64,000 nucleotides of DNA from Hormiphora californensis (GCA_020137815.1 CM035358.1:3038001-3102000), one strand, 5' to 3'. Positions 25,752 to 31,700 are shown, numbered from the stretch's first letter. Program-made: numbers and translations. Notes: generated from the letters alone by a model not told the origin.

Positions 25752-28700
25752 ATGAGAACACAAACTGGTGCATTCCTAAGAGCTATTATAATGGGGCCAC
25801 CAGGGTCAGGAAAAGGGACTGTTAGCTCTCGGATCGTGGACAAATTTAGTTTTCACCATCTCAGCAGCGGCGATCTCCTCCGACATCATATCAGGTAGAC
25901 ACCAGGAACCGACCGAATCATGAAATACTGGTCCCTGATTGGCTGATTACCAGTCACGTGACCTAAATAACGAGTTCTGATTGGTTGTTTACTTGTTTCG
26001 GTCGGTTCCTGTCAGGTAGACACATTGACTAAAACTTTCAACAACAATTAAATTTTTGGAACTTCGTCCCAGTTTTTGACTTCGTCGCCGTTTGGTTTTT
26101 TATGTATTCCATTCTTAGGAGTGACACCCAGCTTGGCAGAGAAGCCAAAGAATTCATAACGAAAGGCTTGCTTGTACCAGATACACTTGTAACAAAACTC
26201 ATCCTGTCGGAACTGTCTACCGTGGATCAGAAACGACAGTTGCTAGATGGTAAGTTATTTGATTTATATCCTGATCATATTGGAATGATTTATTGATTCG
26301 GGGCCTGGCAAGGCCCCCCGACCCGAATATAACCCAAACTCAACCCATCCCCCCTAAAACATCCCCCCTAAAACTAAAACAACGGGGCCGAGCCGACAGG
26401 CCCTTAATACCAGATGAAAAAAAACCATTCGGGGCCTGGCAAGGCCCCCCGACCCGAATATAACCCAAACTCAACCCATCCCCACTAAAACATCCCCCCT
26501 AAAACTAAAACAACGGGGCCGAGCCGACAGGCCCTTAATACCAGATGAAAAAAAAACCATAACCATAACCATAACCATAACCATTCGGGGCCTGGTAAGG
26601 CCCCCCGACCCGAATATAACCCAAACTCAACCCATCCCCCCTAAAACATCCCCCCTAAAACTAAAACAACGGGGCCGAGCCGACAGGCCCTTAATACCAG
26701 ATGAAAAAAAAACCATAAACCATTCGGGGCCTGGCAAGGCCCCCCGACCCGAATATAACCCAAACTCAACCCATCCCCCCTAAAACATCCTCCCTAACAC
26801 TAAAACAACGGGGCCGAGCCGACAGGCCCTTAATACCAGATGAAAAAAAAACCATAACCATAAACCATAAAACCATAACCATAGATATTTTTAGAGTGAA
26901 AGTTTTGAAGCCCCCTGAAGTAGTAGAGAGGTGTTCTATGGCTCGTTGGAAAGGTCTCGAGGTCCCGCGACGTATAGGGGGTGCGGCGATGGCCGTACCC
27001 AAACCCATAAGGGGTAGGACGCGAAAAACAGTCAAAATAAGGGGTATGCAGATCTCGGCAATTAGAAGGAGTAGACAGGTGTTCTAGGGTGCGTTAGAAA
27101 GCTCTCGAGGTGCTGAAGTAATTGGAATGTAATTGGAAGTAATTACATGTAATTAAAATGTAATTAGATGTAATTAAAGGGTAATTACATGTAATTAAAA
27201 GGTCTAAATGACCCCAAATGATAATTTAAATATATTTTGACATATTTTGAGGCCCTGAGACCAACGGGTGGCCAAATTTAATCTGGTTTCGGGTCGGCTG
27301 ACGTAAAAACTCCGCGTTTTGGTCGAGTAACCATAACCATAAACCATAAAACCATAGATATTTTTAGAGTGAAAGTTTTGAAGCCCCCTGAAGTAGTAGA
27401 GAGGTGTTCTATGGCTCGTTGGAAAGGTCTCGAGGTCCCGCGACGTATAGGGGGTGTGGCGATGGGTGTGCCCAAACCTATAAGGGGTAGGACGCGAAAA
27501 ACAGTCAAAATAAGGGGTATACAGAACTCGGCAATTAGAAGGAGTATAAAGGTGTTCTAGGGTGCGTTCGAAAGCTCTCGAGGTGCTGAAGTAATTGGAA
27601 TATAATTGGAAGTAATTACATGTAATTAAAATGTAATTACATGTAATTAAAGGGTAATTACATGTAATTAAAAGGTCTAAATGACCCCAAATGACAATTC
27701 AGACATATTTTGACATATTTGGAGGCCCTGAGACCAGCGGGTGGCAAAATTTAATCCGGTTTCGGGTCGGCTGACGTAAAAACTCCGCGTTTTGGTCGAG
27801 GTAAAACCATAAAACCATAAAACCATAACCATAGATATTTTTAGAGTGAAAGTTTTAAAGCCCCCTGAAGTAGTAGAGAGGTGTTCTATGGCTCGTTGGA
27901 AAGGTCTCGAGGTCCCGCGACGTATAGGGGGTGTGGCGATGGCCATACCCAAACCTATAAGGGGTAGGACGCGAAAAACAGTCAAAATAAGGGGTATACA
28001 GAACTCGGCAATTAGAAGGAGTAGAAAGGTGTTCTAGGGTGCGTTCGAAAGCTCTCGAGGTGCTGAAGTAATTGGAATGTAATTGGAAGTAATTACATGC
28101 AATTAAAATGTAATTACATGTAATTAAAGGGTAATTACATGTAATTAAAAGGTCTAAATGACCCCAAATGACAATTTTGACATATTTTGACATATTGGAG
28201 GCCCTGAGACCAGCGGGTGGCCAAATTTAATCAGGTTTCGGGTCGGCTGACGTAAAAACTCCGCGTTTTGGTCGAGTAAACCATAAAACCATAACCATAG
28301 ATATTTTTAGAGTGAAAGTTTTGAAGCCCCCCTGAAGTAGTAGAGAGGTGTTCTATGGCTCGTTGGAAAGGTCTCGAGGTCCCGCGACGTATAGGGGGTG
28401 TGGCGATGGCCATACCCAAACCTATAAGGGGTAGGACGCGAAAAACAGTCAAAATAAGGGGTATACAGAACTCGGCAATTAGAAGGATTAGAAAGGTGTT
28501 CTAGGGTGCGTTCGAAAGCTCTCGAGGTGCTGAAGTAATTGGAATGTAATTGGAAGTAATTACATGCAATTAAAATGTAATTACATGTAATTAAAGGGTA
28601 ATTACATGTAATTAAAAGGTCTAAATGACCCCAAATGACAATTTTGACATATTTTGACATATTGGAGGCCCTGAGACCAGCGGGTGGCCAAATTTAATCA

Positions 28701-31700
28701 GGTTTCGGGTCGGCTGACGTAAAAACTCCGCGTTTTGGTCGAGTAATAAACCATTCGGGGCCTGGCAAGGCCCCCCGACCCGAATATAACCCAAACTCAA
28801 CCCATCCCCCCTAAAACATCCCCCCTAAAACTAAAACAACGGGGCCGAGCCGACAGGCCCTTAATACCAGATGAAAAAAAACCATAACCATAACCATAAA
28901 ACCATAACCATAAACCATAGATATTTTTAGAGTGAAAGTTTTGAAGCCCCCTGAAGTAGTAGAGAGGTGTTCTATGGCTCGTTGGAAAGGTCTCGAGGTC
29001 CCGCGACGTATAGGGGGTGTGGCGATGACCATACCCAAACCCATAAGGGGTAGGACGCGAAAAACAGTCAAAATAAGGGGTATACAGAACTCGGCAATTA
29101 GAAGCAGTAGAAAGGTGTTCTAGGATGCGTTCGAAAGCTGTGGAGGTGCTGAATTAATTGGAATGTAATTGGAAGTAATTACATGTAATTAAAATGTAAT
29201 TACATGTAATTAAAGGGTAATTACATGTAATTAAAAGGTTTAAATGACCCCAAATGAAAATTCAGACATATTTTGAAATATTTGGAGACCCTGAGACCAG
29301 CGGATGGCCAAATTTAATCTGGTTTCGGGTCGGCTGACGTAAAAACTCCGCGTTTTGGTCGAGGTAAACCATAACCATAAACCATAGATATTTTTAGAGT
29401 GAAAGTTTTGAAGCCCCCTGAAGTAGTAGAGAGGTGTTCTATGGCTCGTTGGAAAGGTCTCGAGGTCCCGCGACGTATAGGGGGTGTGGCGATGGGTGTG
29501 CCCAAACCCATAAGGGGTAGGACGCGAAAAACAGTCAAAATAAGGGGTATACAGAACTCGGCAATTAGAAGCAGTAGAAAGGTGTTCTAGGGTGCGTTCG
29601 AAAGCTCTCGAGGTACTGAAGTAATTAGAATGTAATTGGAAGTAATTACATGTAATTAAAATGTAATTACATGTAATTAAAGGGTAATTACATGTAATTA
29701 AAAGGTCTAAATGACCCCAAATCACAATTTAGACATATTTTGACGTATTTGGAGCAATTGGAAGGAGTAGAAAGGCGTTCTAGGGTGCGTTCGAAAGCTC
29801 TCGAGGTGCCGAAGTAATTGGAATGTAATTGGAAGTAATTACATGTAATTAAAGGGTAATTACATGTAATTAAAGGGTATTACATGTAATTAAAGGGTAT
29901 TACATGTAATTAAAAGGTTTGCATGATCCCAAATGATAATTTAAACATATTTTGACGTATTTAGAGCAATTGGAAGGAGTAGAAAGGTGTTCTAGGGTGC
30001 GTTCGAAAGCTCTCGAGGTGCTGAAGTAATTGGAATGTAATTGGAAGTAATTACATGTAATTAAAATGTAATTACATGTAATTAAAGGTTAATTACATGT
30101 AATTAAAGGGTAATTACATGTAATTAAAAGGTCCAAATGACTCCAACTGACAATTTAAACATATTTTGACATATTTTGAGGCCCTGAGACCAGCGGGTGG
30201 CCAAATTTAATCCGGTTTCGGGTCGGCTGACGTAAAAACTCCGCGTTTTGGTCGAGGTAACCATAAAACCATAAAACCATAAAACCATAAAACCATAGAT
30301 ATTTTTAGAGTGAAAGTTTTGAAGCCCCCTGAAGTAGTAGAGAGGTGTTCTATGGCTCGTTGGAAAGGTCTCGAGGTCCCGCGACGTATAGGGGGTGTGG
30401 CGATGGCCATACCCAAACCTATAAGGGGTAGGACGCGAAAAACAGTCAAAATAAGGGGTATACAGAACTCGGCAATTAGAAGGAGTAGAAAGGTGTTCTA
30501 GGATGCGTTCGAAAGCTCTCGAGGTGCTGAAGTAATTGGAATGTAATTGGAAGTAATTACATGTAATTAAAATGTAATTACATGTAATTAAAGGGTAATT
30601 ACATGTAATTAAAAGGTCTAAATGACCCCAAATGACAATTCAGACATATTTTGACACATTTGGAGGCCCTGAGACCAGCGGGTGGCCAAATTTAATCCGG
30701 TTTCGGGTCGGCTGACGTAAAAACTCCGCGTTTTGGTCGAGTTAACCATAAAACCATAACCATAGATATTTTTAGAGTGAAAGTTTTGAAGCCCCCTGAA
30801 GTAGTAGAGAGGTGTTCTATGGCTCGTTGGAAAGGTCTCGAGGTCCCGCGACGTATAGGGGGTGTGGCGATGGCCATACCCAAACCTATAAGGGGTAGGA
30901 CGCGAAAAACAGTCAAAATAAGGGGTATGCAGATCTCGGCAATTAGAAGGAGTAGAAAGGTGTTCTAGGGTGTGTTCGAAAGCTCTCGAGGTGCTGAAGT
31001 AATTGGAATGTAACTGGAAGTAATTACATGTAATTAAAATGTAATTACATGTAATTAAAGGGTAATTACATGTAATTAAAAGGTCTAAATGACCCCAAAT
31101 GACAATTCAGACATATTTTGACATATTTGGAGACCCTGAGACCAGCGGATGGCCAAATTTAATCAGGTTTCGGGTCGGCTGACGTAAAAACTCCGCGTTT
31201 TGGTCGAGTTAAACCATAAACCATAAACCATAGATATTTTTAGAGTGAAAGTTTTGAAGCCCCCTGAAGTAGTAGAGAGGTGTTCTATGGCTCGTTGGAA
31301 AGGTCTTGAGGTCCCGCGACGTATAGGGGGTGTGGCGATGGCCATACCCAAACCTATAAGGGGTAGGACGCGAAAAACAGTCAAAATAAGGGGTATACAG
31401 AACTCGGCAATTAGAAGGAGTAGAAAGGTGTTCTAGGCTGCGTTCGAAAGCTCTCGAGGTGCTGAAGTAATTGGAATGTAATTGGAAGTAATTACATGTA
31501 ATTAAAATGTAATTACATGTAATTAATGGGTAATTAAATGTAATTAAAAGGTCTAAATGACCCCAAATGATAATTTAAACATATTTTGACATATTTGGAG
31601 GTCCTGAGACCAGCGGGTGGCCAAATTTAATCCGGTTTCGGGTCGGCTGACGTAAAAACTCCGCGTTTTGGTCGAGATATTTAATATATCTTAGATTTAC

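Follow-up and report, generated by a model that had tools for sequence, protein, structure and literature searches.

A composite repeat array interrupts intron 2 of an adenylate kinase gene in Hormiphora californensis. The gene lies in a 64,000-nucleotide stretch of the genome (GCA_020137815.1 CM035358.1:3038001-3102000), hereafter the window, which was analysed at full length and is numbered from its first letter. The array is made of two modules, A and B, in the order A-A-A-A-B-B-B-B-A-B-B-B-B-B (A1–A4, B1–B4, A5, B5–B9; 26297–31677), with pieces of an AACCAT microsatellite between them. Judged by its sequence, the unit A-(AACCAT)n-B is a high-copy, non-coding dispersed element of ~600 bp in two species, and the array is best read as one polymorphic insertion in a 78-bp intron. 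Self-nesting in some form, in which the element inserted into copies of itself, probably built the array. For the further proposal that the nested stack was copied into the intron as one composite, in one step, we see the balance as even.

Module architecture and the polymorphic insertion

The module order with microsatellite fragments at the junctions, as given in an initial annotation of this DNA, is exact: each of the 13 linkers is a piece of the microsatellite, with CCAT units preceded by two to four A (A(2-4)CCAT). The A module (n = 5) is 120 bp long and its copies show 0–3 differences, with no informative site for comparison. The B module (n = 9) is 444–445 bp long, with the exception of B6 (871 bp), whose central unit of ~200 bp is present in three diverged copies. 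An unbroken microsatellite tract is found in A4-B1 and in A5-B5, both of which read as intact monomers of ~605 bp. Over the whole array the microsatellite amounts to 45 units, about eight elements' worth. Five A modules stand against nine B modules, and four extra A at the front would balance the brackets exactly. The initial annotation had mentioned neither this imbalance, nor the triplication inside B6, nor the fact that all eight inner B ends differ from the outer one at their last base. No A or B copy was found outside the array within the window.

The two modules are related through their ends. As the annotation had noticed, A carries a hairpin, here seen to be GC-rich, and the repeat CCGACCCGAA, and B carries the reverse complement, TTCGGGTCGG; a perfect 10-bp match of this kind arose in 10 of 2000 shuffles. 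The terminal hairpins are not unusual when compared with shuffles (z = -1.13 for A1 and -0.24 for the right palindrome).

Table 1. Positions of the array, its modules and its host intron in the window
Feature	Position	Strand	Remarks
Adenylate kinase gene, host intron 2 (GT-AG)	26250..31708	+	exons ~25752-25894, 26119-26249, 31709-31815, 31930-32046, 32139-32294
Whole composite insertion	26297..31677	+	5,381 bp; flanks TTGA|...|TATTT
A1, outer left end	26297..26416	+
A1 GC-rich terminal hairpin	26300..26317	.	7-bp stem, identical in all A; z -1.13
Left subterminal inverted repeat CCGACCCGAA	26318..26327	+
A2	26428..26547	+	shortest linker in front (A-run + CCA); joint type also in X4, X7, X11
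A3	26584..26703	+
Intact monomer A4 - microsatellite - B1	26723..27327	+	~605 bp; microsatellite 26843-26882, 5 units
B2	27356..27800	+	end GAGG|T
B3 and B4, near-identical pair	27833..28743	+	3 differences
Intact monomer A5 - microsatellite - B5	28754..29363	+	microsatellite 28874-28918, 6 units; sits within a microsatellite remnant
B6	29386..30256	+	central ~200-bp unit x3, starts 29561, 29754, 29966
B7 and B8	30297..31208	+	ends GAGT|T
B9, outer right module	31232..31677	+	sole array copy ending GGTCGAGA|TA
Right subterminal inverted repeat TTCGGGTCGG	31637..31646	+	31-40 bases before the end
Weak palindrome, right repeat to end	31655..31669	.	5-bp arms; z -0.24

Matches to ADK or ADK_lid in all four exons scanned identify the host gene as an adenylate kinase. 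Its exons join into an open frame, from which the splicing shown in Table 1 is predicted. Intron 2 measures 5,459 bp, against 78 bp when the array is taken out, so the annotated inflation to ~5.5 kb holds.

To follow the insertion in other samples, contigs of four sequencing runs (X1, X4, X7 and X11) were compared; the region is partly present in 20 of the 22 runs listed, of which 16 with a share of 0.2 or less, X11 apart, were left aside. Summed contig depths are read solely as far above the unique flank and never as copy number. X4 has a contig of 187 bases (depth 38.7, minus strand) whose letters 71–187 match the left flank up to 26297; on the right flank, the match from 31684 onward is to letters 1–63 of a contig that agrees with it in length, depth and strand. 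We take the two alignments as one contig that joins both flanks without the array, that is, as the empty allele, and on this ground the array would be a polymorphic insertion. An X11 contig (organism B) is aligned from 31676 with 52 loose letters ahead; its start is the one predicted for an empty TTGA|TATTT site, which it may represent. The filled right junction is present in X1 with 0 differences over 70 bases. Depth sums at 31690–31723 and 26143–26260 suggest, on both flanks, that X1 has a second haplotype (~36) and that X4 has two haplotypes (38.7 and ~44.5). From these depths alone, X1 may be heterozygous and X4 perhaps free of the array altogether.

An assembly artefact is scarcely credible. 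Among the listed contigs none spans the array, whose ends alone were compared, as an artefact would allow. Against it stand the differences of up to 5% between copies, the identical right junction in X1 and the recurrence of the junction types elsewhere.

Junction letters, module divergence and dispersed copies

The letters at the junctions support nesting. All five A starts are preceded by A. The outer start lies at TTGA|T, and all four inner starts split the microsatellite at CCA|T, in accordance with the ACCA|T junctions of the initial annotation. Over both strands, the monomer contains 24 ATA sites, of which five lie in the microsatellite, and the probability that all four inner starts fall there by chance is 0.002. 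Within the microsatellite tract there are five ATA and no TAT, and ATA is thus offered on one strand only, so nested copies would be co-oriented and yield the order A(n)B(n).

All nine B ends precede TA. None of the eight inner ends has the terminal A (no additional letter in three, G in three, T in two), whereas it is present in B9, in the listed dispersed ends and in L001, an independent metagenome contig described below. The three different last bases imply at least three separately formed junctions. This one base varies among three states although the surrounding 42 bases are invariant. Last bases are partly shared between neighbours, namely B3/B4, B5/B6 and B7/B8.

The B copies differ from one another at 8–23 of 445 positions, with the exception of B3 and B4 (3 differences), which are likely a recent ordinary tandem duplication. 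Adjacent copies differ by 14.0 on average versus 14.7 overall (exact p = 0.22; p = 0.65 without B4). There is therefore no clustering by position, the pattern that the initial annotation had associated with simple unequal crossing-over. Variation is central, at 45 of 303 columns versus 3 of 142 terminal ones (p = 1e-5). It is also mosaic, with incompatibility in 50 of the 153 informative pairs. In this comparison B6 was scored by its first unit and its end, with the middle unit omitted. Central and mosaic variation fits several source lineages better than decay after local duplication. Two simpler schemes were rejected: a block duplication of B1–4 into B6–9, given lag-5 distances of 20, 9, 11 and 13, and a head-to-tail concatemer, since a direct B|A junction is absent from the array.

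The same data bear on a history in which one or two insertions were multiplied by local tandem duplication of A and B (by unequal crossing-over, slippage or a 'mirage'-type process), while gene conversion with dispersed copies as donors turned B into a mosaic. We consider this history unlikely. The B3/B4 pair, the near-identity of the A copies and the last bases partly common to neighbours would all suit it. Otherwise the copies do not cluster by position, with B5 and B6 differing by 20 and B7 and B8 by 9, and duplication would not predict three junction states at one base amid 42 invariant bases. The same joints also occur in samples where the empty allele is seen or indicated, and the first microsatellite|A junction, with no more than two bases of homology, still calls for an insertion.

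Summed contig depth over A is 12,000–565,000 versus roughly 30–330 on the adjoining flank in all four runs, evidence of a high-copy repeat in two species. That its unit is A-(AACCAT)n-B, as the initial annotation had inferred, is supported. Joints of A to A through a microsatellite stub are listed in all four runs, and the shortest stub has depths of 759, 671 and 387 versus ~50–150 on the unique flank; both A-to-A and B-to-B junction types recur at other loci. Among the rows listed (18 of 71), 17, 19 and 9 contigs in X1, X4 and X11, respectively, depart from the window sequence at 31678–31683. They run into long, unlike, A-rich flanks (agreement 0.48–0.70), which indicates that dispersed copies end GGTCGAGA|TA like B9; the next letters are ATA. 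An X4 contig whose aligned part is preceded by 526 letters and followed by 196 fits a monomer without proving one.

L001 ends, in order, with the last 76 bases of B, the canonical terminal A, three microsatellite units and the start of B. Insertion into the microsatellite can thus leave an intact end. L001 matches from B position 370, and its upstream sequence is not B; it is either a truncated copy, a chimera, or a right module related to that of B but joined to a different interior. It also carries another repeat of the window, a 235-bp tandem unit, at 80% (L001:302-560). Upstream of the 76-bp right module, L001:234-876 has 35-bp inverted repeats around a palindromic interior. L001 was the one metagenome match in a scan for the B-end pattern; the A-end pattern gave no match in metagenome and viral contigs. 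Two bacterial matches to the B-end pattern were rejected as chance, the agreement covering 20–23 bases alone. An Rfam search with the monomer returned no match.

Proposed mechanism and related elements

The element is likely non-autonomous and moved by a Helitron-type rolling-circle enzyme encoded elsewhere, and it likely inserted repeatedly into its own AACCAT microsatellite. In a first step the enzyme would cut A|T in an ATA context. In a second step, a nine-element stack located elsewhere (A8-B4-A-B5, balanced) would have been copied from its fifth A onward. For an enzyme that cuts at A|T, inner B ends without the A of the cut site would be uncuttable and read through. Copying would then have passed eight inner B ends and stopped at the first intact one, B9, and the composite product would have landed in the intron in a single event. 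Five A for nine B, together with defective inner B ends, lead us to propose a deeper stack as the source, from which one unit was copied into this intron. End bypass and mobile composite Helitrons arising from self-insertion are described in PMC5148889.

Stepwise nesting in place would involve some eight or nine insertions, one inside another, with four A later deleted by microsatellite recombination or with some insertions being B-only. We hold it to be rather improbable, although much of the array agrees with it: the B copies are divergent and unclustered, the junctions differ, the 45 microsatellite units correspond to about eight elements, and short A units between microsatellite tracts could vanish without trace. 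Yet it requires a single site to have been hit eight or nine times, in an allele that another sample lacks, and it gives no reason why none of the eight inner ends has the A present in B9, the dispersed copies and L001. Of the repeated self-insertion put forward in the initial annotation, nesting as such is supported by the junctions and the divergence of B; the in-place, stepwise form needs nine A for nine B and leaves the lone canonical end of B9 unexplained.

Several points weigh against a nested stack copied as a unit by a rolling-circle enzyme. If A|TA sites were targeted at random, a single 40-bp tract would receive four hits solely near 100,000 copies (genome size and copy number being assumed). 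Random targeting is thus insufficient, and the element must in addition prefer the tract or a resident copy, for which the model gives no cause. The module order would be no different had four A units been lost in place. The mosaic in B could also have arisen by gene conversion with dispersed copies as donors, and CpG mutation may have added to the variation. The census of B ends is skewed to diverged copies (18 of 71 rows listed), with none listed at 31676–31677. The contig taken as the empty allele has seven letters between its aligned parts where five are predicted, so the exact target is not fixed. The initial annotation held that self-insertion would fail if no A–B monomers existed elsewhere; the dispersed family speaks for their existence, but among the contigs compared neither a complete dispersed monomer nor a second copy of the composite was read letter by letter. 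The enzyme class is suggested by end geometry, and no autonomous RepHel partner was found: pattern scans of metagenome, viral and bacterial contigs gave no long locus, the host genome not having been searched.

By analogy of its ends, the element appears to work like a non-autonomous Helitron2 or HINE, of which it is at most a putative member. It has the HINE layout (left module, microsatellite, central tandem repeat and short right module), with the border of the right module confirmed by L001. The subterminal inverted repeat of 10 bp is shorter than the published Helentron/HINE range of 11–15 bp, and a palindrome follows the 3′ repeat in either polarity, though not significantly so compared with shuffles. 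The Helentron membership favoured by the initial annotation fails on the target: Helentrons and HINEs insert at T|T with variable T runs, whereas here all five left junctions follow A and all nine right junctions precede TA. The geometry is that of Helitron2, with hairpins, weak ones, at both ends and the right repeat 31–40 bases from the end on the plus strand (20–50 bp in the type). For the Helitron2 target TNAT|T/A, the outer site TGAT|A fits and the four inner sites are CCAT|A. Reading the target as the canonical Helitron A|T fits all junctions, but the canonical 5′ TC and 3′ CTRR with a hairpin 10–12 bases before it are absent, the ends being CGAGA (plus) or CGAA (minus). Either polarity is conceivable: plus fits the HINE module order and the FoHeli1/2 geometry, and minus fits a TC start with a strong terminal stem-loop.

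A cut-and-paste element with a 2-bp AT duplication, AT[TCGGGG...GGTCGAG]AT, is very unlikely. The outer junctions are equally readable as such a duplication, but terminal inverted repeats are lacking, AT is absent from all eight inner right junctions, and the module layout agrees with HINE and Helitron2 descriptions.

The closest known systems share parts of this picture. In FoHeli1/2 of Fusarium oxysporum (Helitron2 type, PMC5148889), the inverted repeats are asymmetric, the 3′ copy lying tens of bases before the end; each end has a hairpin, the start is TC after AT, and self-insertion was proposed to yield multi-terminus composites that move as a unit. The accessible text reports one nested case and short duplicated 5′ ends and mentions no microsatellite target; here, in contrast, the stack is up to nine deep, both ends are multiplied and each inner A start lies in the element's own microsatellite. 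DINE-1/HINE (PMC4067079) and the oyster Cg_HINE (PMC7492417) likewise have a left module ending in a microsatellite, a spacer, a central tandem unit of variable number and a short right module that contains an inverted repeat and a palindrome; the pairing of a related right module with another interior, which L001 may represent, is HINE-like too. HINEs, however, insert at T|T and expand their central repeat into satellite-like arrays, whereas the present element inserts at A|T(A), has a repeat of 10 bp and is arrayed by its terminal modules. Similarly, double insertion at one target (McGurk and Barbash, PMC5932611) shows how target preference stacks copies and supplies a substrate for tandem expansion, but it produces head-to-tail dimers around a duplicated host target, whereas in the present case the element itself contains the target and A(n)B(n) results. 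Plant Helitron arrays (Xiong 2016, as summarised in PMC12628747) also have unequal counts of the two ends, with many 5′ ends and one 3′ end, explained there by over-replication of a single template in rolling-circle mode; the present copies, in contrast, are divergent, with a split microsatellite between them. The same review describes shuffled Helitron parts in oyster. MuTAnT (PMC4486113) inserts into a simple repeat too, but it is Mutator-like and targets a TA repeat of the host, which it is not reported to carry itself.

Helitron self-insertion and multiple termini (PMC5148889), central-repeat satellites and double insertion are already known. We found no account, in open-access full text, of an element that inserts repeatedly into the microsatellite it carries and so produces A(n)B(n); supplements, Repbase and subscription papers were outside the scope. 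Such insertion would be a route from transposon to tandem array distinct from central-repeat expansion, rolling-circle concatemers and double insertion, with a readable signature of A(n)B(n) order, split microsatellite and defective inner ends. The contrast between inner and outer ends would map the base needed for termination without biochemistry, and the locus would offer a natural test of a compact intron's tolerance of a 70-fold insertion segregating between individuals. The initial annotation went further and had the transposon turned into satellite DNA, a claim not sustained by an array that is one 5.4-kb block. More speculatively, we conjecture a ratchet: a rolling-circle element carries its own preferred landing site, copying runs past inner ends whose cut site has been lost, and ever larger stacks move as single units, able to expand a small intron seventy-fold at a stroke and to found two separate satellites, one from either half of the element.

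Neighbouring features of the window

Intron 1 of the adenylate kinase gene contains, just inside it, a 109-bp inverted-repeat element (25903–26011) of very high copy in all four runs. Twelve bases at the splice donor are repeated behind it (25891–25902 and 26012–26023), and more copies lie near 34941, 37763 and 49218. Its end motif resembles the inverted repeat of the array, perhaps by chance. This repeat dominated the left-flank loose-end listing, A-end flanks being outside what the listing covered. Directly downstream of the gene are intronless KIN17 (32493–33698), 99% identical to a EukProt protein, and anamorsin (CIAPIN1; 33844–34584).

Upstream, between inverted modules at 22274–22560 and 25383–25660 (87%), the region 22274–25660 has four 235-bp tandem units with TTAGGG-like tracts (24100–25042). 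A 2.8-kb tandem duplication of 99.6% identity at 34937–40547 is either recent or an assembly artefact. Long palindromic or foldback-like elements occur at 12272–13582, 59106–60504, 62821–64000, 22651–23062 and 18352–20643, the first two of which are related (~75%). A 3.3-kb G-rich minisatellite with strong strand skew spans 52779–56098, and RNase H and reverse-transcriptase-like remnants lie at 46813–47607 and ~58754–61024.

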